Positions 1,619-29,737 of a stretch of 64,000 nucleotides of DNA are shown here, piece by piece. The stretch comes from Antedon mediterranea (lineage: Eukaryota; Animalia; Echinodermata). Under the pieces are notes generated by a model. That model searched no databases and was not told the origin of the DNA. It saw only the letters and a list, made by a program, of their open reading frames with translations. Each line of letters begins with the position of its first letter. The stretch's first letter is position 1. The stretch covers positions 4,340,001 through 4,404,000 of the forward strand of contig NC_092672.1 of NCBI RefSeq assembly GCF_964355755.1, in the 5' to 3' direction. The position numbers and the translations under genes were made by a program.

Positions 1619-4600
1619 TTATTCTATTCGTTCATCTCCTTCCTCTACATCTTTTAAACTGAGCACCTCAACACGACCTTTGCCCTTTGTTCCTGACCTT
1701 ACAAGCTCTTCAACATCTTTATAAACACCTGGATCTACAAGACAAACCAATTCTAGTTCATCGTCAAATTCTTCTGATTCTACTTTTGACATCAACGGTG
1801 CTAGTCTGTCTTTGATCTTCCTTGTTTCCTTGCTTGGTATACCAATTCGTAACCTCATCTGTGCCCGTGCTATTTGGAAGTTGTCCGTTTCTTTCAGCTT
1901 TTTGATAACTTCTAAAGCCTAAAAAATAAAATTAATCAATAAACTAGAAGCAACAATAAAGCAGTAATTAAAACATCTTCCTCTCTCCTTCTATGCACAC
2001 TAAATGGAATTGATCTGCGATTAAAAATAAACAAGATATGATGATTAAAAATCTATATTGGCAAAATAGAATTTTTCTAAGTATAGTACTTGCTTTGTTT
2101 GTTAGCGTCCACAATGTTTAAGTTATCGTCCTGAATGTTTGGGTGTTAATAGCTATATAATTACAGAACAAGTGATATTTCGCAGGATTTCAGCAATTCA
2201 CTTCCCCTTAGGACAACAATGCACTGTTAACAACATAGCTCCGGTACAAGCTCCTAAAATTGCATTTTTCACTATCATATCATTGGTATTTATTCATCGA
2301 TCTCTGTTATCTCATTTACTTAATTGAGTACTTCAATATGGCATCTACCAGATCCAAAGGAAAGAAAGATTCTAAGGTAAAATCTATTGAAGACTTAGGC
2401 AAGGACAAGTCAGGCCCTATCCGTATACAGGACGAAACGACTGAGCCTACAGAACACCGGGAAGCAACGTCGAAATCCCCGGTAATGGGTTCACCGATCG
2501 ATAGTGCCACTTTCAGTACTATTCATAATCTGTTGGCTGATGATCCTGATCTCATATCAATTGTGTCACAAAGCATTAGTAACCACATTTTGTCATCACC
2601 GGATCTCTTTAAAAATATTGTACATGCAATAACAACCAACAAAGTGTTAATTTCTGCAATTAGTAAACATATTTTAGACGCGGTCTCGGAATCTGTTTAC
2701 AACAGCGTAACCATGGACAACGCCGCAACTGCGGGCGACATTGATATAATTCGCCGCGAAAATGAAAATCTTGTAGCAGAAAACCGAACCATGATGGACA
2801 AGATCGACGACTTAGAACAGTATAGTCGACGAAACTGCCTACTTTTGCATGGTATGCCTGAATCACCTAGAGAAGATACTGACGAATTAGCTATTAATTT
2901 AATAGGCTCTAAAATAACAGACAGTATTGAACTAAGCGATCTTGATCGAACTCATCGCCTAGGTAAAAGGAAGTTAGACGCAACAAAATCAAAACCACGG
3001 CCGATTATCATCAAATTTACGTCGTACCGTTCCCGATCAGAAGTCTTTAAAAACAAAAAAATGCTTAAAAAGTCAGGTTTCACAATCACAGAAAACTTAA
3101 CATCTAAACGCCTTAATCTGCTTCATAAGACCTCAAACAATGAAGCTGTGGAAGCCGCATGGTCAATCGACGGGCGTATTACATGCATACTAAAAAGAAA
3201 CAAGAAAAAGATGGTAATCAAATCGGAGTCTGATCTTCGCTGTATCTAAATGATCGCCTTTCAGGACGTTCTTCCTTCATGGATCAACGAACAGATAAGT
3301 ACTCTCGTAACCTTTGTGTTATCTGTTACCAATTGAAACTTAACTTTCATCATATTGACATTTCTGACTCTTTGCATGTAATGTTATTGTCTCAAATCAA
3401 AAGTAATATCATCATAATCATTGCATTGACTTCTTATGACGTTTTCTCATGATTTTCACCTTTTGTATTTTACTTACCCATTTTCGCCATCGATTTCGGC
3501 TTGATTTGTTTGTGTTTTATTTCTCTGTTTTTTGTTTTATGTTATTACCATATTCACACAGAGTATTGACCTTTGTATGCTTCAATATTCAATACGTTTG
3601 TGCTTGGGTGGATGGGTGTTAATGTGTGTGTGATGGTGTGTTTGTGTGTTATATCTTATTGGTATCTTAGTTTTTTTCTTCATTGTTTCTCAGTATAAAA
3701 AATCTTTAAATAATCAGATTACATTGCCATGTGTCATTGCTTTGAACACTATTATCATCCAAGTGTTTAAGTGCCTGATTGCCATATTCATGTAGTTTTC
3801 ATAATTGTTTATACCATTCCATAATGTTCTCTTGTTGTTTTGCAATTTTTAGTTCCTTGCCGGAGTTCTGCTTAACTCGCCTTACTTTGACAGTCTTGTT
3901 TTTATGCATTGTTAATTTTTCTTTTTTCCAATATTCAGTTTGATCTAATATTTGTTTATTTATTTATACAGTGTATATTTATTTATATATATTTTATACA
4001 TATATTTTAAATTATATATTAACTAGTATTTTCACTGAACAGATTTCTCTTTTTATATTTTCATTTTTTACTTGATGTACAACCTTAACGCAGATGACGG
4101 AACATCGTACCACGACCGATTATCAAACATAAACTTCTTCCCCTTGCCCAGCTATTCAGACAACCGTAACATTAACAGGAACCTTGGCAATTCTACATCT
4201 AACATTGATCCCGACTCTAATTTTTTCACCAACAGCAACCACAGTCCCTCCCAATATTATGATCCTAATGAATTTCCTGTTGACTCACTTTCTGATTGCT
4301 TCTCCACTATTCATTTCAACTCTAGAAGCATCCTCAAGCACATTGATGAAATTAAACAACTCCTATCATCCATTAATCTGCCTTTCGATATTATTGGAGT
4401 AAGTGAAACTTGGCTCAAGTACGATAATCCTTTGGTCCAACTCCCAAATTATAATTTTGTCTCTAACCACAGAACCCATAAAGACGGTGGAGGAGTCGCC
4501 ATGTATATCCTTGATACTCTACAATTCTCCATTAGAAGTGACCTACACCCACACCCTTCCAACTGCGAATCCATCTTTATTGAAATTAAACGGCCTCATC

Positions 4601-7600
4601 ACAAAAACATTATAGTGGGTACTGTATATAGACCCCCCTCCTCTGACCCAAATCAATTCTTAATTGAACTTGACATTGTCCTTTCCAATTTAACAAAAGA
4701 AAATAAAAATGTTTATATTCTTGGAGACTTTAACATTGACATTCTTAAACATGAATCCGACAATACTGCCCGTCAATTCATTAACACACTGTTTAGCAAT
4801 CACTATCTTCCACTTATCGACAGACCATCCAGAATAACAAATTCCACAGCCTCATTATTAGATAATATTATTACAAATCAATTTGATTGTTCTCATATAA
4901 GTGGTCTGCTATATAGCGATATCTCTGATCATCTCCCTGTTTTTAATATTTCAAACCTCTCTGATAGTTTTACCACTAGCTCAAACAATGAAGAGATCCC
5001 ATCTCTCAGACAGATTAACAATACGTCTCTTAACAACTTTTACCATGATGTCTCTAATCAAACTTGGTTTGATATCCTTAATTCTAATGATCCTGACTTT
5101 GCTTATGACCTCTTTGATAACACACTTAAAGCCCTTTATGACCAACACTTCCCGTTACTGAAAAGGAACAATACAAACAAGAACAAAAAAATTAAATCTT
5201 GGATGTCAAATGGACTGCTAAAATCAATAAAGTATAAACATAAACTCTATGCAAAATTTCTTCACCGCCCTTCTCCTGCCAATGAAATTAAATATAAACG
5301 ATATCGTAATAAACTTAACTCCACTATCAAAATTGCCAAAAGAATCCACTTTCATGATATTTTCACCAAGCAAAAAAATGATATTAAGGCAACCTGGAAA
5401 TCAATTAACTCTTTATTGAACCATAAAAACCGAAACCAACACAAAGGCAATACCCCTGTCAACTGTAACGGAGTACCAACTAAAGACCCCGTCATTATTT
5501 CTAAAGCATTTAATGATTTTTTTGTCGAAATCGGACCCTCTCTTGCTAACAAAATCCCTCCCAGCAATGTTTCTTTCAAAGAATTTCTTCCTCAACCAAA
5601 TCCGAAATCAATGTTCTTAACCCCCGTCCTAGAAGAGGATATCATAAGAATTATCTCCTCCTTCGATAACAATAAAGCTCCTGGTACTGATGATTTCCAT
5701 ACTAAAGCCATTAAACATGTTATCAACCTTATCTCCCTTCCCTTGTGTCACATTTTTAATCTTGTCCTCTGCAAAGGTGTTTTTCCGAACAGGTTGAAGC
5801 TGGCGCGCGTTACCCCTGTTTACAAATCTGGCCCCAAATCCAACCTTTCTAACTATCGTCCTATCTCCATCCTGTCAATCTTTTCGAAAGCCTTGGAAAG
5901 AATTATCTATGATAGAACATTTTCATTTATCAGCAAACATAACATCCTCTTCAAGAGACAATATGGCTTTAGAAAAGGACATAACACCTCCATGGCTTTG
6001 ATCGACCTCACTAACAAAATTATTCATGCATTCGAAAATCGTCAATTTGGAATCGGACTTTTCATCGACCTTTCCAAGGCTTTCGACACCATTGATCATA
6101 ATATTCTTCTTTTTAAATTGTCTCACTATGGAATCCGAGGACCCGCCTTAAACGTTTTCAAAAGCTATCTCACTAACCGCTCCCAATGTACTAAATATTT
6201 TAACTCTATTTCTAATTTTTGCCCTATCACCTGTGGCGTTCCCCAGGGCTCCTTACTTGGCCCGCTTCTGTTCACCTTTTACATTAATGATATCCACCGA
6301 ACCTCAAACCTGCTAAATTTTTTTCTATATGCTGATGACACTACAGTTTTTCATGCCAACAAAAATATCCAAACTCTTTTTGACACCTTTAATACCAACG
6401 TTATCCCCTTGTCCCAGTACTTTATTGCCAACAAACTCTCCCTCAATCATAATAAATGTAGTTACATCCTATTCGGAACCCCGCAGTTGACTAGAGGTAT
6501 TGATGTGTCCCCATTTAAAGTCGTTATTGATAATCAAGAAATCCCCTCTGTTAAGTATAATAAATTTCTTGGCATTATCATCGACAACTCTCTCTCATGG
6601 AAACCCCATATCCAAGAAATTGAGAACAAAGTGTCTAAGAACCTTGGGATCATTTCTAGGCTTTCTTCCTTCCTCCCAACTAATATTCTCAGGACCCTTT
6701 ATTGCACACTCATCCTTCCTTATTTGAGCTATGGTAACATTGTCTGGGCCAACACTTACCCTTCAAACATCATTAAACTCTCTATCCTACAAAAAAAAGC
6801 TATCAGGACTATATCTGGCGCTCATCCACTGTCACATTCCTCCCACTTATTCTCCAAACTCAATCTTCTCAAACTTTCGGACATTAACCTATCCCAGCAA
6901 GGTGTCTTTGTTTTTTTGGCCACTCACTCACTTCTCCCTTGCCATCTAAACGACCTTTTCGCTCCTAATAATACCGTTCATAAATATTATACTAGAACAA
7001 GAAATAACATATATATCCCTAACCATAACACCAATTATTTTCAACATAGCATTAGATATTCTGGACCTCTATTGTTTAACAATTTACCCCCCTCAATTTC
7101 CTGTGCTGCCAACCGCTATTCATTTAATAATAACATAAAAAATTACCTTTTGTCTCATTACTGATCGATATGATTGATATGGTCGTTTTTTCCATGTTCC
7201 GTGACTTGCTATCTTTATTATTCAATTGTCATCATATTCGCTATATGCCATGCAGCTGTACTTTTTTCTGTTCTTTTTTTATTTTTTATTCCAACTTTTA
7301 TCTACTGGTTTTATATATATTTTGTATTTCTTTATTGTCTAATTAATTTATTTTCTTTATTTATATATATTTTTTTTTTTTTTTTCCTTCTCTTATTTAA
7401 ATATTTTGTAAAGGCAATCCCGTCACAAGATTGTAATCTTTTTGGGATTTGCCTTCGTCCATTTTCTTGTTTTATCACTTGCCATTTTGTTTTTGTTACT
7501 TTTGTCTTTTGGACGTGAATAAATGTTCCTTGAATTGAAAAATTGAATTGAATTGAATTGAATTGTGTTTGGGCTGAAATCCACCTAAAGGAGCGTCGGA

Positions 7601-10600
7601 AAGCCATTATTGGTATTGTCTACCGGTCACCTAATAGTTCACTTCACAATAATATACAAATGTATGTACCTATGAGAGAAGTTTTAAATAAGTCGTGTCC
7701 TACAGTTATAATCGGAGACTTTAATTTTCCAGGTATTGATTGGGAAAATTTAGAGTCTAATTTGGATGGTCAGGATTTTTTGGATTTTGTTCAAGATGCA
7801 TATCTTACCCAACATGTTGAATCAGCGACTAGAGGAAATAACATTTTGGATCTTATTTTAACTAATGAACCTAATATGGTGTCTGATGTTGCTTGTGTTG
7901 GTAGACTTGGGTCTAGTGATCATGATATGCTAGAATTTTGTTGTAATATTGATACGCTGATTAATGATAGTACTGAATATGTCTTTGATTTTAGGAGAGC
8001 CAACTGGAATAATATTAGAGATGTGCTTGTAGAAGTGGATTGGCCCAGCCTAACTGAACTTCCATCTATTTCTGAGTCATGGTCAAAATTTGAAGATGTT
8101 TATAATTCTGTCCTAAGGGATAACATACCTTTAAAATTGAGAAGACACAATAGAAAACCGCCTTTTATCAACAGAAAAGTTATTCGTTCAATTTGGAAAA
8201 AGAGAAAACTATGGAAACGTTACTGTAATTCGAGGGATTCCATAGACTTTGAAATTTATAAGAGATTTTCCAATAGGGTCAAGTCTAAAGTAAAGAGTGC
8301 CAAGAGAAAATTTGAGAAAAAAATTGGCTGATAACTGTAAGCGCGATCCTAAGTCTTTTTATAGTTACATCCGATCCAGTACTAAAACTAAAGATTCAGT
8401 GGGGCCCTTAGTTAATGATGAAGGGAATATAGTTGTTGATGACAAGGAAGCTGCTGAAATTTTAAATAATTACTTTACATCCGTGTTTACAATTGATTCT
8501 AATTTTATTCCACCTAATTTACCTAACGAGTTTGAAAATGATGAGATTTTAACCACTGTACTGTTTACCCCGCAGAGACTCTTAAAATTGATGCAGAAAC
8601 TTAAACCTAACAAATCACCGGGACCTGATCATTTGAGTTCAAGAATTTTGTTGGAGACTGCTGGGGCGGATTGCTATAAGCGGTCTATAAACGGTCTTAG
8701 CGCTTAGCCGGCTATAATTCGTGACGTAGCAAGTAGTCTTTATTTATAGACCATTGCTATACCGCGGTCTGACCTGTAAACGGTCTTTAAAATTAAAGCC
8801 TACTCGAAGGAGTCTTAAAACAGTCTAAACCTCTCTTTTTGTTGCTTTTACGTATTATTTATCGTCAAAGACAACCAATTAAACGAGTTTTAAGTGTTAA
8901 ATCAAATAATAACGGTGATTTTATTCTTATATAGGCCTATGGATTTTCTCGCGTAGAAATGTACGTACTGTTATGATTGTGAATTGAACAAGCGTGACGA
9001 ACATTACCTTATTTGGTATTCTACGCGCAAAGTACGCCCTCAATTTGTTACTTTACGCGGTCTTATCCAAGACTGTTTTATAGCAATGGTCTATCAGGAG
9101 TGGCTTTAATAAGACCGTCTATCTGATAAAGCCGGCTTTAATCGGGGAGTTAAGACCGATCAGTTAAGACTGTTTTATAGCAATCCACCCCTAGTGTTAT
9201 TGCGACTCCTTTAGCCCGTATATTTCAGAGATGTTTTGACGAAAATTAAGTTCCTCCTTTATGGAAGAAAGCCAATGTTTCCCCTATTTTTAAAAAAGGA
9301 TCTAAGAAATCACCGGCAAACTATAGGCCTGTTAGTTTAACTTCCCATTTTTGTAAATTGATGGAATCTGTCTTGAGGGATGACATTGATCATCTTGACT
9401 CGTTACATTTACTGAATACATCCCAACATGGGTTCTTGAAAGGAAGATCTTGTCTGACAAATTTACTAATGTTTCTTGAGAAGGTGACATGATATTGACC
9501 AGGGTTTACCAGTAGATGTAATTTATTTTGATTTCCAAAAGGCCTTCGATAAAGTTTCTCATGTAAGGTTGATGAATAAAGTTTTGGCTCATGGTATTGA
9601 AGGTCCATTTGGCATGTGGATACAAAACTGGCTTAGTGATAGATCTCAAAGGGTTGTTGTGAATGGTAGGAAATCTGAGTGGGCCCCTGTTCATAGTGGT
9701 GTGCCTCAGGGTTCGGTCCTCGGACCGGTGCTTTTTCTCATTTTTATTGATGACATAGATTTTTCCATTGATTCTTCATTGTTGAAATTTGCTGATGACA
9801 TTAAATTGTTTGGAAGTGTGCGTTCCGAGGTTGATCCTGAAGTACTACAAAATGATATTGACAAGTTATCACTTTGGTGTCGTGAATCCCTAAAGAGCTT
9901 TAATAGTAGTAAATGCAATGTCATGCACTTAGGATTTAATAATCCGAATCATTCTTATGAACTTGATGGGGTTATCCTAAATGAAGTAACAGAACAAAAA
10001 GACTTGGGAGTGATTATTGATAAATCTCTTAAGACTAGTAAACAATGTGTAGCAGCAGCCAAAACAGCTAATCGAGTTTTAGGTACTATTAAAAGATCCA
10101 TTAAATATAAATCAGTTGATATGATTAAATCGCTTTATATTGGATTAGTCAGGCCTCATCTCGAATTTGCAGTCCAGGCATGGTCTCCTCAACTAAGGAA
10201 AGACATTCTTTTATTAGAAAAAGTTCAGAGGAGAGCAACTAGGCTACCACCTAGTTTGCATGGCATGCCCTATGCAGATAGGTTAAAAGTTTTTAATTTA
10301 ACAACCTTAGAAGAAAGACGACACAGAGGGGACATGATTCAAACATATAATTTTCTTTCTAACAAAGAGGCTATTGATAGTGATTTACTTTTTCAAAAGT
10401 CTGAATATACCGCCACTAGGGGTCATAAACATAAATTGAAAAAGAATAATGCTCGATTAAATTGCCGTAGTCATTTTTTTACCCAACGAGTCGTAAATTC
10501 ATGGAATGCTCTCCCTGCCAGTACAGTAGAAGTTGACACAACCATACTATTTAAAAGAAAATTTCAGAAGACGAGGGGGGCTAATAGAGGGCCACGACCG

Positions 10601-11915
10601 GCCCACCAGCCTCTTGCACCACTCATTTAGAGTGGTGTACGGTGAGTTACGGTGAGTTACATGCCTATTGATTTTCAAGAAAATTGATATATTGGTGATG
10701 TCACAAAAGCTTATACTGTACAGTGTTAAAGTCTGACTTGCCTGTATCTTCCATATGAGATATGATATAGCACGCCCTCTGTATTCCCTGATATATTTTG
10801 TCAAGTATTTTACTCGGTTTCTGAGTGTATTCATTTATTATAGTTAGTACTAATAATTAATCCAATACTAACCTGTTGTTTAGCATTTCTTGTTGGTTTA
10901 ACCGCATAGTGTACATCTTTCATAGCCCTTTCTATGATACCAACTGTGTAGGGGCGTTTTGTCTCCGGATTGATGCATTTATCGGCTACAATTGTTGCTA
11001 TATCTCTGAACATCGACTCCAATTGTTGATGCCGCTCTTTTTCAGACACTTGTAGTTCTCCTTTTGCTAAAATCTAAATGAAATATATTAAATTTATTAA
11101 TATTAATAATGTATATGTAATGAAAAAAAGGAATCTAAGTTTGACCATGACTGATTAAGCCTTGTCTACATTAGCAAATTTTATATGACATAAAATGTGA
11201 TGTTCCTATATATATGGATGGACATGATGATGTCATATCGCTACCATATTTGGGAATATCACTACCATATTTGGGCACATCACACTTTTTTTGTCAAACT
11301 AGTTGATAGTGTAGACAGATCTTTATGTATACATAGGCCTTGTAACTTCTGCTATTGCTGTACCTTCAAGCAGATTTCTGTTGAGTCTTCTGTGGAGAAT
11401 GCTTTCTGTAAGTCTTCTTTCTTTGCAACTTGTCCTTTCGATACATTCGTGAATATTGTATGGGTTTGTAAAACCTCATCAATATCTTTTTCACTTTGAA
11501 TTGAAGACAAAAATAGTATTGATTAATAATGACTGAAATGAATATAAAATTATTAAAAATATTCTTTTTGTACAATTAATAATTAACACGAGAAAAAGCA
11601 GCGTAATCTTGCGCATCAAAATATTTTCAACTTAGGCCCTATGTCTACCCCCACCACCCTAGGCATATGTCGAGCTAGATGGATGGAAAATCCCACGGAG
11701 GGAAATCCACTGCCGTTCACGTCGGCCTACGTACTCTACTACTACTGCCTAGCTAGCCTAGACTATAGAGAGAGAGGTTTTACTTACACTTTGTTGCGCC
11801 ATGATATAACTTTATTTTTATAACAAGCAATCTCAAAACGCTTCCCTGCTTTTTTCATACGAACTATTGCTATGTTCGTTAATCTAATCTGATTTGTTGG
11901 CGTAAATATTGACAT
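1619..11915 (-). CDS. SBDS: Ribosome maturation factor SBDS (252 aa, 4 coding exons)
   Basis: Exons 11915-11788, 11493-11364, 11073-10873, 1918-1619 (128+130+201+300 = 759 nt), all GT-AG and in frame. Translation [36 protein letters not shown]...[11 protein letters not shown]...[14 protein letters not shown]...RAQMRLRI is typical SBDS. Confidence 0.97.
2338..3249 (+). CDS. LINE ORF1p (coiled coil + RRM + CTD, L1-ORF1/Transposase_22-like), 303 aa
   Basis: ATG at 2338. Motifs [39 protein letters not shown] and AWSIDGRI are typical of LINE ORF1. Confidence 0.88.
   Translation: MASTRSKGKKDSKVKSIEDLGKDKSGPIRIQDETTEPTEHREATSKSPVMGSPIDSATFSTIHNLLADDPDLISIVSQSISNHILSSPDLFKNIVHAITTNKVLISAISKHILDAVSESVYNSVTMDNAATAGDIDIIRRENENLVAENRTMMDKIDDLEQYSRRNCLLLHGMPESPREDTDELAINLIGSKITDSIELSDLDRTHRLGKRKLDATKSKPRPIIIKFTSYRSRSEVFKNKKMLKKSGFTITENLTSKRLNLLHKTSNNEAVEAAWSIDGRITCILKRNKKKMVIKSESDLRCI
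4075..7164 (+). CDS. LINE ORF2p: AP endonuclease + reverse transcriptase, 1029 aa, uninterrupted
   Basis: APE motifs GVSETWL, GGGVAMY, GTVYRPP, LGDFN, LDNI, SDHLP. RT motifs [42 protein letters not shown]. Confidence 0.95.
7566..10660 (+). mobile_element. Degenerate 5'-truncated CR1-clade LINE (APE-RT pseudogene) interrupted by a MITE
   Basis: Fragments YRSPNS/GDFN/SSDH (7558-8331), a frameshift near 8320, PGPD (8297-8662), then [13 protein letters not shown] (9193-9490, in-frame stops at 9248 and ~9490), and [21 protein letters not shown] (9569-10630). The 3' end has hairpin CACCACTC-ATTTA-GAGTGGTG and a (GGTGAGTTAC)x2 tail. Confidence 0.92.
8664..9190. mobile_element. MITE (PIF/Harbinger-like) inserted in the CR1 RT region
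   Basis: TIR GGGCGGATTGCTATAA / TTATAGCAATCCACCC (1 mismatch); flanks CTG / CTA (imperfect 3-bp TSD). Removing it restores the CR1 frame [17 protein letters not shown]. Confidence 0.85.
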
Positions 11916-12163
11916 TTTGGAGAATGTTTTACTAAAAAATGTGAGCAGGGTGTATTGCACAATCAACCAAAACAAAAACAATAGCTTTCAAATTATTTTC
12001 TGAAAATATCGCCACCAATATGTTAGTTATTTTTAGTAAAGCTACCTACCAGAAAATCACTGAAGCATAGCAAGAATAGTACAACTCAGATTTTTCCGAG
12101 GAAAAATCCGATTAACTTTTAGACTTTCAACATGATAACATAAAATAAAAAATAAACCAAATC
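11916..12163. promoter_or_regulatory. Probable bidirectional promoter between SBDS and the clathrin-terminal-domain gene
   Basis: Divergent ATGs only 248 bp apart; TSS positions not determined. Confidence 0.55.
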
Positions 12164-15100
12164 ATGGATGGTTCGAAAGAAAGCCAGCTAATTCACATTG
12201 AACCGATTACGCAGGTAAATACATTTGTGTTAATGTTTGTTGATTTATTGTAGCAGGTTAGGCTAGGCCTAGCCATGGATGGAGGATACCTCTGGGCTAG
12301 CTAGCTAGCTAGTTAGGCCTCTAACCTCATTTTCTTCTCTCTCACCTGCCAATCCATTGGAGTTTTCCCCCCATCATCAATCAACCATGCATCATTAAAG
12401 AGTCGCATGCCTGGTTTTTATAGTAAAGTCTGAAATATTTGTTCTAGGTCTATATGGCCAGTCAGGTCCTGGACCATATAAGTGTGCCAATGTGTAATTT
12501 AAGCAAAATAAAAACATTATTTGGCTTCTTTTGTAATTAATTAATAATAATATATTGTGAAATGTAACATTTTTATCTAAAAAAAAGGCATTTTTACTTT
12601 ACTAAATATTTTTCTTTCATAGTAAAATATCACTATCAATTTAGAAGCAAGATTTGATAAAATTGGCAAAGAGGAAGAATAACAAAAATATTCTTTTATT
12701 TTAAGTAAATATTAAAAATAAAATTACAACTTTGCGACTTCAATTTATTTTATTGTATTTTTTATTATTTAAAAAATGACTTTAAAAAATATTATTGAAC
12801 AGTATCATCGTTCATTTTTTATTTAAATGATTACCATTTAATTTGTTTTCAGCTTGTTCATCATGGAATCAAGGCAGATCATGTGACATTTCCCCGTGTA
12901 ACAATGTCATCCAATCGCTGGCTCTGCTGTCGACATACAGATAAAAAGAAAAAAGATGTTGAAAGAGTTACGGCTTTAAATTTAACACGCAAACAACCAC
13001 GAGCACTTTCTTGGCCAATCACAGCTGACTCTGCTATGATGAATCCCCGCAAACCTTGGCTAGCTCTTAAAGGTACTATAAAGGTTTTAGAAATAGAATA
13101 TTCATAATGTATATAGCACCGTTTGATGTAGTCATAGTCATAGTCATATATACTTTATTGTCCATTTAAAAAACAGAAATGTGATTTGAAAACTGGCAAA
13201 ATACAAAAATATAAAATACAATTTACAAAAACACACACAAAAAGTTAAGAGGCTAAAAATTGTTAAAATTAGATAAAAATTATCGGTTACATTTTACCTT
13301 TGTACTCTGGAGTTATATAAGTGTATAGCATTAGGTACAAACGAGCACCTAAACCGTTTTGTTTTGGTATTAAGTGCACGTAGTCTTATGCCAGAATTCA
13401 TGAGAGCAAATTGTTTGTGAAGAGGATGTGTTTCATCATCAATTACAGCAATTGTCCAGTAAAACCCATGATGGGCCTGTAAATCCTCGGTAAACCCTTC
13501 CAGTAGTTTTGGCTAACTACTAAATTTTTGCAGATAATTTCATGAAGTACTTGATGTATACATATTATAACAGCCTTTAAATGAAAGTTTGTGTTCTAAA
13601 TATTGACGTCAAATAAAATTGATTTTTGGGCCAGTGAGAAAACTTATCTACTGGCCAGATTGATGAAGATATTGTTACACATATTGTAGAGTGGTGTAAC
13701 AAAACCAATATGAAACTCAAATTGTTTTGTAATCCAAATAAAAATGTATCCAGTTATATCAAATTTTGTAATTAAATCAATGAATGTTTTATACTGTAAA
13801 TTCAACCCTTTTTTCTGAATTTGTAGATATAAATTCAGTTTTATTTCAATTGTATGATTCACCTACTCATTATTTTAAGTTTCGTTTCCTTTAACACATC
13901 CTTGACTTCCGTCATTTTAGGCTAAAACTTCCTTTAATTGCTATTATTAGTCATATTCGTCTTATTTAAATTATTCTGACAGAAATCTATATTCAAAATT
14001 GAATAATCCTTTGTTGTTTGTACATCCATGCATGTGTGTCACTGTTGATTGGGTGATGACATAATACTTTACTTCATTAATTCATTAAGTTGTGGATCCA
14101 AGGTCCAATCTTTCTACATGTATAATCTTGGATAATTTGTGGTGGTACAGTAGTTTGCTGGGTGACAAGCTAATAATAATAAAAGGATCAAACTGTAAAT
14201 TCAATCTATCTATTGGTATATTTGTATTTTGTGCCTTTAATGTGAAGTTAATTGGCATAAAAGCTGTTACAAACAAGTATCACAGTAATTGAATGAAATA
14301 GATTTAATCATATAGCGCGTCTTATTGTTAATCAGTAGTAAATATTTCGAAATAAAATATCGAATGAATGATGAATGAAAATAAAAACATTTATACTGTA
14401 TATCCTTGGGTTTAATCCCATTTCGGGTCTAATCCCACTTCCTACTTTATGTATGATGTCACTAACAGGCATATCCCCGGGAATAGTCCCAGAATTGACT
14501 TTTTGATGGTCTGGACGTAGGCCTCTCTCTAGCCAGTGCAGATAAGATATGCTTACCAATCATTTTTTATAGTCCACCCCCTAAAGTCAGCCTAATTTGG
14601 TGTTCTAGTGGGGGGGGGGGGGGGGGGGTTATACCAGAGGATATACAGTATATAAAAGGATAAATATACTTTAAATATAATTACTGTATGTAATGGTAAC
14701 ATTTTTTTACAATTTTTTCTGTCAGTTGAGAGTTATTTCCAAGTATTCAACGTAATTGCTCAAAAGCAATTGCATTCGTGTTCACTTAGCGATGACATCA
14801 TCTTCTGGTGCTGGATTAATGACAGCATTATTGGCATGGTAACCGACAGAGCTGTGTATCACTGGGATGTTTCAGGCTCTGGTAAGTTGACCTTTGACTC
14901 TACATTGGATAAATTTCATTTGCAATACTGTATATTCAATTAAATTTATTCCAGCTTTCACATGAACAATACCAAGAATAAAATAACACACATGCTAGAT
15001 ATGGGGGACTCCCAACAGTGAACTCAATAACTTTTGATGGGATGTCCCAGCATTTTCATTCAATAAAATTGATAGTCTAAAGGATCTAAAACAATCATTT

Positions 15101-17416
15101 TCATATTTTGTTTGCTCAAACTTCTACTTACAGGTTCTGAACCACCAGTACTGATGTTTTCAAGAAACAAAAAATTAAGTTTCTGTCAAGTTGTTAGTTA
15201 CAAAACTGATAAAACCGGACAATGGTTTATTTTAGTTGGTCTTACCAGGGCAATAGAGGTATATTATCAAAGACATTATTGTCATTAGGTCTTTTTGTTG
15301 ATTAAAATTGCAGTAGTAAGGTGACGATGCATTTGTTAAGCTGGGTCATCAGTTTTGTTTGGATCACCTCAAGTTATGCCTAGTAACCACAAAGTTATAC
15401 CCTTTCATCCCAACTTACGCCCAATCACCCCAAGTTATTCACGTCAAGTTATGCCCTGTCACTCCAAGTTAGGCTTTGTCTCTATACGTTAGACCCCACC
15501 CACTTCTGGTCAGCAGGACAACCTCTAGGCTGAGTGAATATATATATATTTTGATTTCAGACTGGGGACTGCAATGCAATACGTGGCTATGTTCAAGTTT
15601 ACTCAACAACATACCGCTGCAGTCAACTGATTGAAGCACAAACTGCAAACTTTTCAAGTTATAAATTCTCAGGCAATGTGGCACCATCAACCGTCTTGTG
15701 CTTAGTGAATAGGCCTACGGGATCATATGGCAAGGTAATGGTAAATAAACACATATTGGTACCAAATTTGGCAAGTTGTGCCACACACCTTTTTTAAATA
15801 TAATATACGGTATTTTATTTATCTAACTTGAACTCATGCAATACAGTCAGATAACTTGTGTTGTTGTTGGAATTATTTTTTTTTTTTATTCAAATTTTTT
15901 TTTTCTCATTTGTCGATCTTCTGATGGCATCTGGTTGGTATAATCCCTGGTTCTTAGTTATTCATATAATTTTGACATTACAGATCCATGTTATGGAACT
16001 TGGACCGCACGTACCCGGAAATGCTTCCTTCAGGAATCTTACCGAGCCAGTCAATTTTAGTAAAGGCGGGAAATATGATATACCAATATCTGTCGAGGTA
16101 GGTTCTAACTAATTAATTCTATTGCTGTAGAGAGTTTATTAGCACATTGTACAGTCAAAAGGTTACAGATTATCCCTATTTGATGGCTATGTTAAAGCTC
16201 CGTCTACACTATCAAACTTTATGTGACAAAAAAATGTGATGTGCCCATATATGGACTTGATGATGTCATATCACTACCATATTTAAGCATATCACTACCA
16301 TATTTGAGCACAACATACTTTTTTTTTGTCGAACTAGTTTGATAGTGTAGACAAAGCTTAAGGAAGCAGATTTTTTTTTGAAATTTGGAATTTATTTAGG
16401 TATGTTGTGCCACTGGCTTAGTGTATGTGATGACAAAAGCAGGTTACGTGAAGGTTTGTGATGTGGAATCTGCCATGCATCTCTGTACTGCCAGGGCATC
16501 AGAGTTTACAGTGTTCATTACTGTACCACACTCGGATAAAGGCATTATTGGAGTTAGCAGAAACTGTAAAGTAAGTTTAGTAATTTCATAATGTAAAGCT
16601 TTGTCTTCACTATCAAACTTTATATTTTCAATATCAGTTCTTTCTTCAGATTTGTGCCATATCTTTAGCATTAAACATGACTCTCAAACTTTATGTGACA
16701 AAGAAACTTGATGTGTTCATATATGTACACGATAATGTCATATCAGTATCATATATCACATTTTGTTTGATAGTGTAGACAGGTCCCAACTGAACTGGAA
16801 AAATGAAATGGAAGAATTTATAAAAGCATGGCCAAACTACAGAGGGCACTATATATTTTTTAAATACATCCAAACATAGAGGGTGATATTTAAACATTCT
16901 CATATACAGTATCTATAGTAAATCATAGAGATATTATCTCTATGAGTAAATACAGTAGTTGGTACAGGCATGGAGGTATAAAAAAAGCTAAAAGCCCTGA
17001 AATCATCCGAAGGTAGAGTCATTTGTGTTGAAATGACCAAGTCTGCAGGTAGACCAAATTTGTGATGTCCCCTTCGGGCCATTACCGTTGATTGCTTAAG
17101 GCAATCATTGGCGATAATCCTGAGTTTGTTTTAAAACTCGGATGCAGGAAGTACTCTTCTTTTTTATACCTCCATGGTACAGGCACTTAATAAGCATGAC
17201 ATATGCCAGTATGTATTGTATGTGTATGTATAGTAGAGCATGTTTCTGCAAACAAATAATAAACAAACAAACAATAACATGAATTTAACCTCTTTTATTT
17301 TTAAGGTGTTTCATATGACTGTTAAAGAAAAAGAACTTGTGAATCACATTAGGTCAACATTAAAACGACCAGCAATCGCTAATCGCTTAGAGAGGTCATT
17401 CAGTGGACAGTCATGA
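12164..17416 (+). CDS. Stand-alone clathrin heavy-chain N-terminal beta-propeller protein (373 aa, 8 coding exons)
   Basis: Exons 12164-12214, 12853-13072, 14726-14881, 15134-15258, 15561-15734, 15984-16097, 16400-16570, 17306-17416 (1122 nt), all GT-AG, open frame. Colinear with clathrin residues ~1-360: PITADSAMMNP..LALK (PISADSAIMNP..IALK), FWCWI..MVTDRAVYHW (FWKWI..LVTDNAVYHW), CQVVSYKTD..QW (CQIINYRTD..KW), GKIHVMELG (GKLHIIEVG), GIIGVSR (GIIGVNR). Confidence 0.9.
13127..13455 (-). mobile_element. 3' fragment of a Rex1/Babar-type LINE
   Basis: Minus strand translates DETHPLHKQFALMNSGIRLRALNTKTKRFRCSFVPNAIHLYN (Rex1-type C-terminus), followed by ATGGACAATAAA and a (TGACTA)n tail. Confidence 0.75.
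16969..17176. mobile_element. Non-autonomous P-superfamily-like MITE
   Basis: TIR CATGGAGGTATAAAAAAAG / CTTTTTTATACCTCCATG-type ends; perfect 7-bp TSD GTACAGG (16962-16968 and 17177-17183). Confidence 0.85.
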
Positions 17417-18122
17417 CAAATAGCCAATCAAGATGAATACGTTCATCGACCAATCGTAACGCACCTCAGAGTGGTGTCGTCTTTCAGTGGAAAATCACAG
17501 GTGCCAAAGTGATTTATTTTCTAGTGGCAATCCTTAAGGAGTGCATTTGAAAAGTGCAAGTGGCCAATCATATTAGACAACAGAGTGATGTCATGATTGA
17601 TGAGTGGCCAATAAAGCAAGGCCGACGATCAAATATTCTCTTTCAACAGTACAGTATTTTAAAATTCCAAGAATTATATGTTTTAATCTTGCTTAAAGAT
17701 TATGTTAAAAATTCAACTGAAAACATCTCTATAGATATTTAATTCGCCAAAAATATGCCTGCAATCTCAATTATCTTTCAAATAAACCTTCTTCAAAAGC
17801 TCTAGTATAAACAAATAATTATTTCTTCAGTGGCTTTCATATTTTATTACGGGTGCAAAACTCTTTTAAAACATTTTTTTATCGTTTTAAAATGTTTTTT
17901 ATCTCTTAATTTGTCAGGTACACTTCTGGTTATGATAATAATTGTGCAATAACACAGTACAACTAAACCGTAAAGCTATAAAATCAATGTCATATTTAAC
18001 TTAAGATAAGCTAATCAGAATCTTCCATTTGTTAGAAAGGTAATTTTTCAGCTGTTGTTCAGAGCTTCCAAATGTTTCCTTATAAGAACGAGCGAGGTAA
18101 GATTTGTCTTCCTTGAATTAAC

Positions 18123-18261
18123 TAAAGCTCTGTCTACACTATCAAACTAGTTTGACAAAAAAGTGTGATTTGCCCAAATATGGTAGTGATATGACATCAT
18201 CATGTCCATGGGCACATCACATTTTGTTCACATAAAGTTTGATAGTGTAGACAGAGCTTTA
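18123..18261. mobile_element. High-copy ~130-170 bp MITE family (Harbinger-like, TAA/TTA flanks), representative copy
   Basis: TIR TAAAGCTCTGTCTACACTATCAAACT / AGTTTGATAGTGTAGACAGAGCTTTA. Other full or partial copies at about 1-27, 616-763, 11155-11325, 16193-16360, 16593-16782, 39893-40290, 42400-42514, 44985-45117, 45514-45670, 48187-48349, 51340-51501, 53252-53385, 54659-54700, 61216-61401. Confidence 0.9.
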
Positions 18262-19981
18262 CATTTTTGTCGGTATTTAAATCATGTTTTCAGTAATTCA
18301 TAAATTCATACTTTAATGCATGGTGCTAGAATTTTATTACATAGTATGACAATCATGAATATGCAAATTATATTTAAATTTGAATACATACAGGTGCGCA
18401 AATTCTGCAAAATACCTTCCGATTCAAATTTATTTTGAATTCACATTTTATTTTTATTTTAACTTTACCAAGATACAGGTGCTCAGAACATTGAAGATCT
18501 TGATTATTAAAAAAAGTTTGAAATTGTAAAATAATTTTAAATTTTTTTGAGAGTAATACTAATAGATTTTGTCACCTTTATACTATTTTGTGCAATTTTA
18601 GTATACTTAAATATAAAAAAGAAGTGTTTAAATTTTAAAATAAAAACTAACTGTACTGCTGTACTATTAAGATGTATTAGTGGTTATATCAATGCATTTG
18701 TAAAAAGAAAATGATATGTTCTTCCATAATAATATTTTAATTATTAAAAAGAGAAACTGGAATTGTACATTTTCTATGTACCTTACTTTCTGAAGTATTT
18801 TTGGAAATATTTCCTTGATTTTAAAAATGTGTTTTTAACCGAAAGTTCGGTAAAAATTACCGAATTATTAAATTTTTATCTGTATTATCTTAATTGTATC
18901 CTTTTAAGGAATGGTTTTCATTTATTAAAAAATGGACATGGCATGGACCTGATTTAGGTTGTTAGCTGTTTGTTTAAATAATAATCAACATATGTGTATT
19001 GTATAGCTAAATAGTATTTAAATTATATAGTGTTCAGTTAATAGAAAGCTATTACAGTGTGTTGTATGTATTTCATTCATATTAATTGTAATATTTGTAA
19101 TGTAGGCCTATGTTAAAATAATAAAATTGTTTTAGTTTAATATTAAATGTAAAAATACTACATGTTTTTCAATGTTTGTAAAAAGCTAATATATAAAGGA
19201 AAAAGTAAGTAGTACAAGTATTATATAGTGTAAACCTACTGTAGGATATTTATAGATTTAATATATTTGTTTCAATGAATCATTTAATCTCAAGTTGGAC
19301 AATATTTATTTTATGAAAGTTATTTTAAGGTCTTTCTGAAAAGTATTTATGTAATTAAAACATACTTTTTAGTTAGTTAGAGCAAGCTCTATGCAGGGAG
19401 TTTTTACAACTCCCTGCTCTATGTTACCTTTTATAATTCATCTCCATATATTTCATTTAGTATTCATATTTATTTTCTTTCAATCAACCATATATTTTCA
19501 ATATCAGTTCTTTCTTCATATTTGTGCCATATCTTTAGCATTACAATGCAACTCTTATTTAAAAGGTGCTGCAATGTTTTAATGTTTGAGTTTAGAAATC
19601 CCTTGTAACTGTAAAGAAATATGTTAGTACTGTATTGTGAATGTATATACAGTACAATAAATATTGTAAAAACAACAATACTTCATATTTTGATTATTTG
19701 TATTTATTTATTATTATTATAATAATTGTATTCACAAAATATAATAATAATTTATCATTGATTTTAGCTAATTTTGTAATGCTGCCGAGTTCCGAACTAG
19801 TGTTATTTCAACTGATTTAATCTTTTAAGTACGTAGAAAATTATGTGATAAATAAACAGAGTGGTTTAAAATCCTATATTTTAATACTGCATATATAAAT
19901 TTTGGCAGTGAAGTTAGTTCTATTGAGAAATCGTCACAGATTGGTCAAAATCACTTATTTTGTGCTATCAACTAGACAGTG

Positions 19982-21232
19982 TTAGAAATCCAATGAAGTG
20001 TTACTTGTGCCACCTCCTCCACATCCCTTGGCAGTCTTCAAATGTTCACCCTGTGACCTACTAACCGTCTCTGATAAATCAGGAGGCAGATGTATTTTTT
20101 CTATTGAAAATTTCTTGCGCTTAAGTTTGAATGCTAAGTCTTCAGTATCTAGTGCATAGTTAGCAAGACAGTTCAGCCGTGGAATTTGAACCACATGAAA
20201 CAAGCCATGATATTCCTTGAATGCTGGTGCCTTGTCCTCTCCAGCAAAAGACTCTAACCGGACAACATAGTCACAGAGTCTTTCTATTCTTCTGGAGTAC
20301 ATCTGCTGAAAGAGATGCGTTGGTACTGTTATGGTGCATGCTGCTAAACTCTTTCTAGTGGTTGCTCTCAATTGATGGAGAAACTGGCAGATGGCAGCAT
20401 TTCCTTCAGCGGATGCAATATCTCCCCAAAGTGGTGATCCAAGGGATAGCAAAGCAAGTCTCAAAATATTCTTTGTGGCAGAAGAAGATGTGGTCCTGTT
20501 TGGTACTGTCTGTAAGTTGCAACCAGTAATGTTAATAACTCGTTTTATTTCATTGAGTAAGTGATCAAACTTGGCATTTGTGTCAGAATTGGCATAATCT
20601 TCTGGAGAGCTTGTGGTCTCTTGGTCAAGACTTGTTTGACAATGTTGATAGCACCATAACTTCTCTTTATCAATTTTATTTCCTGGCATTGTCTTTGTGA
20701 GGTCATACACATGACCAAATATGTTGGGTGATGTTGCCAATTCTGTTTTCAACTGAGGTAAGTTCTGGTACCGCCATGCAATCTCCATGTTTCCTTGATG
20801 AGAACCTTTGTCAATTACCGTCTTCTCGGAACTACCAGAAGAACTGCCATGACCCTTTTTAACCTCCCCGGGTGGTTGGACATTTTGAGAGGTAGACAGT
20901 GCACTTTCTACTGGACATGGCAATTCTGTAAGTAAACTATCAGGGTTTGGATCCAAACTTGACAGAAAAGAATAATGACCGCACATCACGCCCTCTGCCA
21001 CAAAATACTTCAGCATCAGGCGAGCAAAACTGGTGTACACATCCTCTTCAATCAGAAGAATGGTACCAACTGCAACACCTCCCCCTAAAATATGATCAAG
21101 CGAAGGGATGCCAGTTGATAGTAGAAGTTGACCATTGTGAAGAGATGGTCGAGTTCCTGCAATTTGAATCCCTTTACCTTGTCCCTTTTTCTGAAAACTT
21201 GAAACAACCCTTCCGCTACTGGGAGCTGCCAT
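19982..21232 (-). CDS. ELP4: Elongator complex protein 4 (416 aa, no introns in CDS)
   Basis: Single ORF with GTRPSLHNGQLLLSTGIPSLDHILGGG..VGTILLIEED, MEIAWRYQ, LAFKLKRKKFSIEKIHLPPDLSE and C-terminal LDF. Confidence 0.96.
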   Translation of the reverse strand: MAAPSSGRVVSSFQKKGQGKGIQIAGTRPSLHNGQLLLSTGIPSLDHILGGGVAVGTILLIEEDVYTSFARLMLKYFVAEGVMCGHYSFLSSLDPNPDSLLTELPCPVESALSTSQNVQPPGEVKKGHGSSSGSSEKTVIDKGSHQGNMEIAWRYQNLPQLKTELATSPNIFGHVYDLTKTMPGNKIDKEKLWCYQHCQTSLDQETTSSPEDYANSDTNAKFDHLLNEIKRVINITGCNLQTVPNRTTSSSATKNILRLALLSLGSPLWGDIASAEGNAAICQFLHQLRATTRKSLAACTITVPTHLFQQMYSRRIERLCDYVVRLESFAGEDKAPAFKEYHGLFHVVQIPRLNCLANYALDTEDLAFKLKRKKFSIEKIHLPPDLSETVSRSQGEHLKTAKGCGGGGTSNTSLDF

Positions 21233-28272: not shown

Positions 28273-29737
28273 AATAAAATAAAATAAAATAAAAATAAAA
28301 TAAACTTATACATAATTGTCTGCCTTTGCTTGGTTGATGCTGATGAGGTTAGCCAATGGTTATCCACCCTGTACAGGTGAAAATGTATATCCATCAAACA
28401 GCATTTACAAATTTAATCAAATCGATGAAATAATAAATAAAACCTGAATGTGATAAAAACATGTTTTTCTTTCAACGCGAGCTAGCAAATTGTACAGTAC
28501 CTTCTGTCTGTGAAATAATGCTTTTGCCCATACAACAAGCATTCAAATTAGAGTTAAGTATTTGTGGTTATGTTGTGTGTAGGAATTATTAGGCTATTAT
28601 TCAGAGGGTGGGAGATGGAGGAGCGCTCTGGGAAAGGATGAAATATTTCTCCATCCATATACCCCATTCTCTTTGTAGATGTCATTTGTGTATACTTATA
28701 ACTCCATACTGTAATAAGTTATTTGTTATAAATAATTAAATTCTTTTTTGTATTACAAATAAAAATTAGCCTGCAAATGCAGAGTGTGGTTTTATTTTTG
28801 GTTTCATTGTTGATGTAAATTTTCAACTTCTAGTTTGGTTGAAGTTTGTGATTTATGTCCGATACCAGGATTATTATTATAAACGATAACAAACAGCTTT
28901 AGAGTATAATGTGTGTGCTATTGGTTCAAACAATCTCGAATGAAATATTTTATTTATTTTTCTTCAACAAATCTTTATATACGATTTTATAAAGACATTG
29001 ATAAAGCACTAATCATGCAAGAGATCAGGTTATATAATGACAGTAGGACATCCAAAACAAATTCTTTATTATAAATTCATTAATGCATTCATAAATTATG
29101 AATGCAGTTGTCTTATTGAACTGAGATTACGTTTACTTAAAAAACCAAATATGAAAAAATAAAAAAATTTCTATTTTCAAATTTAATTAGGTTTCAAGAG
29201 ATGTTGAAAGACATTTTTTTAAGGAGGGTTTATCCAGGCGACGTTAATAATGTCCCATAGTCAATAGTCAGTCAATATTGACTGGATTAAATTTATCTAC
29301 AAAACGAAATCAGTCAAGCGTATCGTATCCTTGTTTATGTCCCATTTCGAGCAGCAGCAGCCAGTTGAGAAGCAGGTCTCGTGTAAGTTAGACAGGATAT
29401 TTCAATTTCATTCAAGGTACAGTAAATATTTGTTGTTTGATTCAATAAGTAGTTTGTTCAGCGTGGTTTAGTATGCAGGTACATAGATGAAGACAAGATT
29501 CTTATATGTTATCCTCCTGACAAGAGAAAGCCGAGGCGCCCAGCTAGGCCTGTGAGTGAGTGTGATTGAATCAATAGATGGGGAGCAGGTAAGGTGGTAC
29601 GAAAGGTTGAGGTGTGGTCACCCTACACTATAGGGATTTTAAAGGGGAAGTCATGTCAGTGGGTATTTACAGGGAACGGCCTTTTTTATTTCAATAAGTC
29701 TTTTTTTTATTCACCAGGCTATCATTAATCATAGATA

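Follow-up and report, generated by a model that had tools for sequence, protein, structure and literature searches.

A propeller-only clathrin gene in Antedon mediterranea belongs to an old family shared by echinoderms and vertebrates

Antedon mediterranea carries a gene that encodes the terminal-domain propeller of the clathrin heavy chain and then stops, and we hold it as virtually certain that both this gene and the family around it are real. The clathrin heavy chain is usually viewed as a single highly conserved full-length gene in invertebrates and as two such genes in jawed vertebrates. Within the window (the whole 64-kb stretch of genomic DNA analysed), eight exons and seven GT-AG introns on the + strand yield an open frame of 1122 nt, corresponding to 373 aa plus TGA, without internal stops and with intron phases 0, 1, 1, 0, 0, 0 and 0. 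An earlier note on this DNA had described the eight exons and the 373-aa frame. The spliced product agrees at 373 of 373 residues with protein P0001 of Antedon mediterranea, whose source name, 'clathrin heavy chain 2-like', is automatic. Pfam searches of single exons returned nothing at cut-off. The features of the locus are the following.

11916..12163, no strand: head-to-head gap of 248 bp that separates the start codons of SBDS (11915, minus strand) and the legless clathrin gene
12164..12214, + strand: exon 1 (coding part), residues 1-17; the intron follows Q17 (clathrin Q14) in phase 0
12853..13072, + strand: exon 2, residues 18-91; blade 1, including a lysine-rich loop, and the start of blade 2; carries R32, H45 and T57, family-specific by family comparison
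14726..14881, + strand: exon 3, residues 91-143; clathrin-box region, Q96 (= Q89) and F98 (= F91) retained, the equivalents of clathrin K96 and K98 being Q in the alignment
15134..15258, + strand: exon 4, residues 143-184; W-box Q161 (= Q152) and V163 (= I154), and W173 (= W164)
15561..15734, + strand: exon 5, residues 185-242; arrestin-box region, Q206 (= Q192) and I208 (= I194)
15984..16097, + strand: exon 6, residues 243-280; its 3' intron (clathrin 265) is the sole one absent from the set of the conventional locus L006
16400..16570, + strand: exon 7, residues 281-337; last propeller blades
17306..17416, + strand: exon 8, residues 338-373 and TGA; closing strand and helices H345-354 and H359-370, the outer face of the last helix being polar (family alignment, model)
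17610..17786, + strand: candidate poly(A) signals, the first two AATAAA after the stop (17610 and 17781), a hexamer common in the AT-rich DNA here
19982..21232, - strand: ELP4, an intronless ORF (PAXNEB match, E 2.7e-94), convergent with the legless clathrin gene and delimiting the locus on its downstream side

The end of ELP4 lies 2565 bp past the legless clathrin stop, on the opposite strand. Judging from its spacing, the 248-bp gap on the SBDS side is likely a shared bidirectional promoter. In turtles the upstream neighbour is an EF-hand CaBP-type gene.

Residues 14-365 of the protein are colinear with residues 11-351 of a solved clathrin terminal-domain chain (phmmer, E 4.7e-64). A structure predicted from a 62-sequence alignment (pLDDT 94.5, pTM 0.92), which replaced a model from 7 sequences (pLDDT 79.3), superposes through residues 3-371 on clathrin terminal domain 1-357 with a Z of 48.0, an rmsd of 1.9 A over 356 residues and 34% identity, as compared with a Z of 21.9 for the next unrelated fold in the search. 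Both the colinearity with clathrin residues ~1-360 claimed earlier and the structural check proposed with it were thereby confirmed. Of the two Pfam matches foreseen, Clathrin_propel appeared at 24.3 bits (cut-off 21.3), whereas the partial Clathrin-link match did not appear, neither Clathrin_H_link nor Clathrin-link matching any of the 7 echinoderm members. In the 6 other echinoderm members, Clathrin_propel scored below the cut-off in 5 and gave no match in 1.

Legs were sought with the parts of 32 full-length heavy chains that follow residue 380, by tblastn and as an HMM. In the 64-kb window the best tblastn E-value was 0.028 and the best leg-HMM E-value among 3386 six-frame segments was 1.8; the matching terminal-domain HMM, used as a control, missed a single exon of the eight, recovering five at E <=5e-10 and two weakly, at 0.01 and 0.06. 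The Pfam Clathrin repeat of the leg has no match in P0001, and the leg HMM matched none of the 51 family members as against 64 of 78 outside proteins of at least 450 aa. Neither a trimerisation domain nor the ~1600-1700 aa length of a clathrin heavy chain is found, the frame stopping after residue 373. The claim of a terminal domain alone, with no leg exons before ELP4, thus holds for the entire window. Because legs and trimerisation domain are missing, the protein would be unable to form triskelia or coats.

Six of the seven introns coincide in place and phase with those of a conventional clathrin locus from a metagenome scan (L006), four exactly and two in indel loops. The scan recovered six loci, of which L001 corresponds to exon 2 of the family and L002-L006 are closest to conventional clathrins; L006 is identical to the conventional protein P0026 at 210 of 309 positions, and with 281 bp left any legs of it lie out of view. 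As judged from the shared introns, the legless gene is a DNA-level partial duplication of a clathrin gene. The earlier note had likewise preferred this to a retrocopy, from intron positions compared with human CLTC; its count of six matching introns stands against L006, although the six are a slightly different set from those it named. The duplicated segment would have been the 5' part of a clathrin gene, equivalent to its first eight exons, and probably ended after the two helices capping the propeller; the event would predate the echinoderm-chordate split.

Besides Antedon, named relatives were found in 8 echinoderm genera from five classes and, among vertebrates, in lamprey, lungfish, 2 caecilians, turtles and squamates. 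A FastTree analysis of 156 of 187 proteins placed named members and unnamed relatives in a single clade of 51 with support 1.0, in which the branching among vertebrates and among echinoderms agrees largely with the species tree; taxa are stated for named members only, 27 of the 51 having no name. Rows with a profile span below 240 were left out (21 of 160 in one alignment, 31 of 187 in the FastTree set), among them several turtle isoforms, a Strongylocentrotus model and P0170, P0183 and P0184. In length, 50 of the 51 members range from 254 to 463 aa and are as a rule 370-395 aa; the exception, P0018, has 1087 aa and likewise no leg match. With IQ-TREE (43 rows), 25 family rows share one branch (SH-aLRT 100), which does not stand beside animal-type clathrin; that placement was nevertheless not rejected (p-AU 0.19), and the trees single out no clathrin lineage as the source. 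Names of mammals, birds, teleosts, insects or nematodes do not occur among the matches, the vertebrate search having comprised 7999 candidates sharing 5-residue words. Two chordate-rich Atlas clusters, of 51 and 56 members, may include further species from these groups.

Identity between classes within the family is 27-54%, and identity of members to conventional clathrin is 28-38% (34% between the Antedon protein and P0026). The C-terminal ends of the orthologues coincide across the five echinoderm classes and the vertebrates. Exon 2 compared with L001 gave a pN of 0.22 and a pS of 0.69, hence a dN/dS of about 0.13, dS being close to saturation. The sister of the sea-cucumber protein, P0010, has its whole frame on contigs of at most 2581 bp and reads as if derived from spliced mRNA. 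A recent partial duplicate or pseudogene is contradicted by the open frame, the excess of pS over pN and the clade of 51, and the suggestion of an old gene under selection, for which a dN/dS check had been proposed, is borne out. Its scope is wider than in that earlier reading, the family being common to echinoderms and to vertebrates up to lizards and turtles. We found no published description of a propeller-only family in the literature searched, beyond which most subscription journals lay; in agreement with the earlier statement that no described animal protein of this design was known, the family is apparently undescribed.

Adaptor-site residues were taken from PMC5182127 and PMC11543927. 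The anchor glutamines of three boxes are common to the CHC17 terminal domain and the Antedon protein, and in the family as a whole they occur in 30 of 50 (Q89), 24 of 51 (Q152) and 39 of 51 (Q192) members. The clathrin box has wholly or mostly lost its basic residues (R64 0/48, K98 0/50, K96 8/50), and the Royle box is gone (F9 in 1 of 41, N296 in 1 of 51). All 9 echinoderm members nonetheless retain the clathrin-box residues Q89 and F91, and in these members residual clathrin-box binding may persist. W-box positions are clathrin-like at a frequency of 0.88 compared with a domain mean of 0.52 (P 0.011 as one of eight tests, ~0.09 corrected), and in all 16 vertebrate members E takes the place of the W-box anchor Q152. 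For the arrestin box the excess over background is not significant (P 0.08-0.11), and W164, which is invariant there, may have a structural role. In three of the four sites conservation does not exceed the mean of the domain; four intact adaptor sites are not seen in the sequence, the W box and arrestin box being partly kept. R32 (36 of 41) and H45 (38 of 43) are specific to the family, as compared with 1% outside it.

The protein end has also diverged from that of legged clathrins. Hydrophobic residues occupy position 363 in 2% of 45 family rows versus 88% of 66 legged clathrins, position 366 in 40% versus 86% and position 371 in 11% versus 95%, while positions 348, 349, 352, 361 and 365 are hydrophobic in the family too. 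Since the last helix is polar where clathrin continues, it marks, as far as alignment can tell, a true and adapted C-terminal end. Class I PDZ ligands have the consensus S/T-x-hydrophobic-COOH. An S/T-x-V/L/I end occurs in 17 of 51 family members against 1 of 105 other proteins, these 17 being related proteins of about three lineages. It is absent from the Antedon protein, from all 9 echinoderm members and from 12 of 16 vertebrate models, and none of 57 donor-acceptor combinations revealed a cryptic last exon with such a tail in Antedon.

We propose, with confidence about evenly balanced, that these proteins are stand-alone terminal-domain propellers of an old family separate from CLTC/CLTCL1, likely acting as monomeric peptide-binding adaptors with partners of their own. 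The mechanism, offered with slightly less than even confidence, is that short linear motifs would bind in the central W-box-type cavity near R32 and H45, whose position beside the W box is deduced from propeller topology; the arrestin-box groove could provide a second motif site, and acidic clathrin-box motifs would not be the ligand. Ancestrally the protein probably ended in an S/T-x-L/V tail that anchored it to a PDZ scaffold; in echinoderms, Antedon included, this tail would have been lost. Of the two roles put forward in the earlier note, a repurposed scaffold fits this proposal better, whereas a decoy for adaptors is weakened because the basic clathrin-box residues and the Royle-box residues are lost.

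Instead of binding motifs, the protein could be built permanently, by way of its propeller surface, as a structural subunit into a complex unconnected with clathrin traffic (e.g. ciliary, sperm or junctional). Domain-average conservation of three adaptor sites, the low identity between classes and the new conserved surface residues all suit such a role, and the missing mammal, bird, teleost, insect and nematode names would fit a dispensable, tissue-specific one; we nevertheless regard it as unlikely, given that the W-box pocket chemistry is kept, that the SBDS spacing suggests broad expression in Antedon and that the Atlas neighbours IFT122, IFT140, COPA and Vps16 (0.88-0.90) are leads only. 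According to PMC5182127, adaptor binding to the clathrin terminal domain is degenerate. A decoy or buffer that competes with triskelia for clathrin-, W- and arrestin-box motifs and so tunes endocytosis would profit from this degeneracy, from the complete fold and from the anchor glutamines of many members, but a mimic should have stayed close to its model, and with the observed identity to conventional clathrin and the losses in the clathrin and Royle boxes such a function would be improbable. As the protein stops around clathrin residue 357, near the start of the next linker helices, its two terminal helices could conceivably find a partner in trans, be it CLHC1 or another protein with linker or legs; the polar substitutions at 363, 366 and 371 make this split clathrin very improbable. 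Finally, although the gene model was drawn from 64 kb of genomic sequence alone, the chance of a mis-annotated 5' fragment of an ordinary clathrin gene or of a pseudogene is negligible in view of the in-frame exon-8 stop, the convergent ELP4 2.6 kb further, the lack of leg matches in the remaining 46 kb, the coinciding orthologue ends, the low exon 2 dN/dS and the P0010 frame.

The closest known structure is the terminal domain of clathrin CHC17 (CLTC; PDB 2xzg, 1bpo, 5m5r), which in residues 1-357 has the same seven-blade propeller capped by two helices (Z 48, rmsd 1.8-1.9 A); the Antedon gene also has intron positions in common with a conventional clathrin locus. The Antedon protein is 32-34% identical to it, without linker, leg repeats or trimerisation domain, and the family differs further in the missing basic clathrin-box rim and Royle box, the polar last helix and, in some members, the PDZ-type tail. 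CLHC1 (clathrin heavy chain linker domain-containing 1), another animal gene with only a piece of clathrin, has a linker and is not known to have the propeller. Identity with CLHC1 was rejected on this domain make-up, the legless protein having the propeller and no Pfam linker match. CHC22 (CLTCL1), suggested by the automatic name, is likewise a retained clathrin paralogue of patchy distribution; it is full-length, trimerising and 85% identical to CHC17 (10.64898/2026.08.20.745084) and confined to jawed vertebrates (PMC6548504). Identity with CHC22 was also rejected, with 34% identity to P0026 and members in lamprey and echinoderms: because the family occurs in both, is short (370-395 aa as a rule) and is about a third identical to CHC17, it is older than CHC22 and separate from it. 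CHC17-SAS, a shortened clathrin that also occurs in nature and has its own specialised role, is a splice form of CLTC and not a gene; it loses no more than the last 41 residues and still trimerises (10.64898/2026.08.20.745084). A 62-species survey reports only one CHC-encoding gene in lamprey and a cut-off of 50% alignment coverage (PMC6548504). Aligned with a query of 1675 aa, a protein of 370 aa must fall short of that coverage.

On balance we think it fairly probable, from sequence comparison, that these proteins represent a third clathrin-derived animal gene, one that predates the CLTC/CLTCL1 split and, present already in the ancestor of deuterostomes (perhaps of bilaterians), was retained as far as lizards and turtles. 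It would be a rewired, coat-free adaptor that gained a pocket on its top face, had a PDZ tail ancestrally and links motif-bearing proteins to membrane scaffolds; it would have been overlooked because surveys of clathrin filter it out and common model organisms may lack it. Database entries of ~370-390 aa named 'clathrin heavy chain 1/2-like' are accordingly not fragments. A conserved propeller-only paralogue in echinoderms and vertebrates means a cage-free terminal domain maintained for about 500 million years or more, a natural experiment on which ones among the four adaptor sites tolerate rewiring, for which sea urchin, starfish, lamprey and anole may serve as test material.

Joining the eight exons listed below gave 1122 nt without internal stops, encoding 373 residues followed by TGA, and all seven introns were bounded by GT-AG, as an earlier note had predicted for the terminal-domain-only gene legless clathrin. 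The product matched P0001, its Antedon database copy, at 373/373 residues under the source name 'clathrin heavy chain 2-like [Antedon mediterranea]'.

Exons of legless clathrin
12164-12214, plus strand: exon 1, spliced open frame
12853-13072, plus strand: exon 2, spliced open frame
14726-14881, plus strand: exon 3, spliced open frame
15134-15258, plus strand: exon 4, spliced open frame
15561-15734, plus strand: exon 5, spliced open frame
15984-16097, plus strand: exon 6, spliced open frame
16400-16570, plus strand: exon 7, spliced open frame
17306-17416, plus strand: exon 8, spliced open frame

The gene lies head-to-head with SBDS (start codons 248 bp apart, 11915/12164), and a convergent ELP4 gene 2565 bp past its stop is followed by a chaperonin gene. 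The chaperonin assignment of this neighbour stands (Pfam Cpn60_TCP1), 'CCT6' itself being the label of the earlier note. ELP4, which is intronless, and the chaperonin gene form a second head-to-head pair directly after the first, ~460 bp apart (21232/about 21697). The final SBDS exon was located at 1918-1622 on the minus strand, and an SBDS intron holds two LINE-type elements (4039-7164 and 7552-10630, both plus strand), one with an unbroken 1041-codon endonuclease and reverse-transcriptase frame and the other in pieces. Four copies of a MITE-like element of roughly 150-190 bp with inverted ends were observed (11155-11325, 16193-16362, 16590-16785 and 18122-18265), two of them in legless clathrin introns 6 and 7, and a 58-bp stretch is duplicated at 95% identity in intron 7 (16616-16673) and downstream of the gene (19486-19543). 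An exon at 29735-30259 (plus strand) consists of tandem repeats rich in proline, glycine, tyrosine and glutamine and gave no Pfam match.

The protein could be aligned end to end with a solved clathrin terminal domain (query 14-365, chain 11-351, E 4.7e-64). Its structure model (62 sequences, pLDDT 94.5, pTM 0.92) consisted of the propeller and two closing helices. Superposition of this model on residues 1-357 of clathrin took in 356 residues (Z 48.0, rmsd 1.9 Å, 32% identity), compared with Z 21.9 for the top non-clathrin chain. We detected no leg sequence in the window, either by tblastn with the regions beyond residue 380 from 32 full-length heavy chains (best E 0.028) or with an HMM of the same regions against 3386 segments (best E 1.8); the matching terminal-domain HMM recovered 7 of the 8 exons. 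The absence of leg exons, previously claimed as far as ELP4 and the chaperonin gene, thus holds for the whole window. Having neither legs nor a trimerisation domain, legless clathrin is by these defining features not a clathrin heavy chain.

Exon 2 as a query retrieved 9 proteins, each 233-379 aa long; 8 of them are named and belong to crinoids, starfish, a brittle star and sea urchins, and a profile search brought in one sea cucumber protein. In a set of 1.84 billion representatives, the top 13 matches after the collected proteins P0001 and P0004 were mostly 333-424 aa long and scored above every full-length clathrin. When 16 diverse members served as queries, 32 proteins were obtained; those with names came from lamprey, lungfish, two caecilians, turtles and squamates, and nearly all bear the automatic name 'clathrin heavy chain (1/2)-like'. 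Of the 187 collected proteins, 156 were placed in a tree (31 with short matches were omitted), where a single clade (support 1.0) comprised 51 of them: 8 from named echinoderms, 16 from named vertebrates and 27 without a name. In an IQ-TREE analysis of 43 rows all 25 family rows shared one branch (SH-aLRT 100). The vertebrate members branched in the order lamprey, lungfish, caecilians, turtles plus squamates, and the crinoid members separated from the remaining echinoderms. Clade members measured 254-463 aa in 50/51 cases and none of the 51 had a leg match, as compared to 64/78 outside proteins of at least 450 aa. This composition, the species-like branching and the propeller-only lengths without leg match indicate a single orthologous gene that already existed when echinoderms and chordates diverged, in agreement with the old gene proposed earlier. 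The sole long member, P0018, carries a serine- and charge-rich tail of ~700 residues with neither a Pfam nor a leg match, and represents either a real fusion or a merged gene model. Turtle models P0167 and P0187 join the family gene to an EF-hand sequence lying upstream of it (Pfam EF-hand), which we take to resemble a CaBP gene; these are probably merged neighbouring genes. For four unnamed members (P0100, P0162, P0164 and P0170), all terminating in VTRL, the entire protein was read from contigs measuring 8-216 kb; their lineage may therefore have an intronless gene.

Exon 2 and L001, a family exon 2 from the metagenome scan, use the same splice sites and differ at 20 first, 11 second and 41 third codon positions (pN 0.22, pS 0.69, dN/dS about 0.13 with dS near saturation), which upholds the claim of a selected gene. 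Hydrophobic residues occupy position 363 of the last helix in 2% of the 45 family rows versus 88% of 66 legged clathrins, and position 371 in 11% versus 95%, whereas positions 348, 349, 352, 361 and 365 are hydrophobic in both. From these polar positions with retained hydrophobic neighbours we infer that the face equivalent to clathrin's linker-packing face is now solvent-exposed. Several members, including the 377-aa P0010 (sister of the sea-cucumber protein, with contigs of at most 2581 bp), read complete from short contigs, as spliced mRNA would.

A conventional-type locus, L006, is identical at 210/309 residues to P0026, a conventional clathrin judged mammalian-type from solved-structure alignments. 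Its introns follow residues 14 (phase 0), 83 (1), 133-134 (1), 173 (0), 227 (0) and 323 (0). Since 6/7 legless clathrin introns match these (four exactly, two in insertion-bearing loops), the one after clathrin residue 265 having no counterpart, the origin by DNA-level partial duplication proposed earlier is supported. The protein tree alone does not indicate the parental lineage: sisterhood with P0026-like sequences is not rejected (p-AU 0.19), and the family stem is long.

Adaptor-site residues were drawn from PMC5182127 and PMC11543927. In the clathrin box, Q89 is kept in 30/50 members (9/9 echinoderm), as against R64 in 0/48 (W in 31), K98 in 0/50 and K96 in 8/50. The Royle box keeps F9 in 1/41 and N296 in 1/51, and the arrestin box W164 in 51/51, Q192 in 39/51, I194 in 41/51 and R188 in 1/51. 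W-box position Q152 is Q in 9/9 echinoderm and E in 16/16 vertebrate members. A few additional clathrin-box and W-box positions were included in the comparison. Tested against random columns, the W box alone was more clathrin-like than the domain average (0.88 versus 0.52, P 0.011, one of 8 tests); the arrestin box gave P 0.08-0.11, and the clathrin and Royle boxes were at or below background. Family-specific R32 (36/41) and H45 (38/43), each at 1% outside the family, are suggested by propeller topology to lie on the W-box cavity face. A run of lysine and arginine residues common to the echinoderm members follows H45 in the blade-1 loop (aa 47-51, exon 2); it could bind acidic lipids or serve as a nuclear signal. 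An S/T-x-V/L/I C-terminus, a putative class I PDZ ligand, ends 17/51 members versus 1/105 proteins outside (internal background 3.7%), the carriers being lamprey, lungfish and caecilians (4/16 vertebrates), P0015 and 12 unnamed proteins that form a subclade. It was found in 0/9 echinoderm members, and a search for a cryptic exon supplying it at legless clathrin found none.

The most likely mechanism, held tentatively at nearly even weight, is that legless clathrin keeps a peptide-binding propeller and would act as a monomeric adaptor, having lost the acidic-motif rim and coat-forming parts and acquired its own top-face specificity, with an ancestral form anchored to PDZ scaffolds. A fixed subunit of another complex is conceivable, if unlikely, and a decoy for clathrin adaptors is doubtful. 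Half of a split clathrin is very improbable, and an artefact or pseudogene scarcely credible.

The automatic names suggest CHC22, which 10.64898/2026.08.20.745084 describes as full length and 85% identical to CHC17, and PMC6548504 as confined to jawed vertebrates. Legless clathrin, in contrast, has 373 aa without legs, and its family also includes lamprey and echinoderms; CHC22 identity is thereby ruled out. The latter survey reports one CHC-encoding gene in lamprey and demanded 50% coverage, a threshold that would exclude the family; 'partial', 'truncated', 'fragment' and 'terminal domain' have 0 occurrences in its main text, and the supplements of both papers could mention divergent sequences. 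We found no published description of the family, and 0 papers with the exact automatic name, in a literature covering few subscription journals. Novelty of the family is likely. Public databases already list its proteins, and two chordate-rich clusters of similar size occur in the Atlas. The unnamed members, mostly outside both named groups, may push its range further, and the CaBP-like turtle neighbour offers a synteny marker for seeking remnants in mammals and birds. We conclude that the clathrin-derived gene family to which legless clathrin belongs is real and old, and apparently undescribed.
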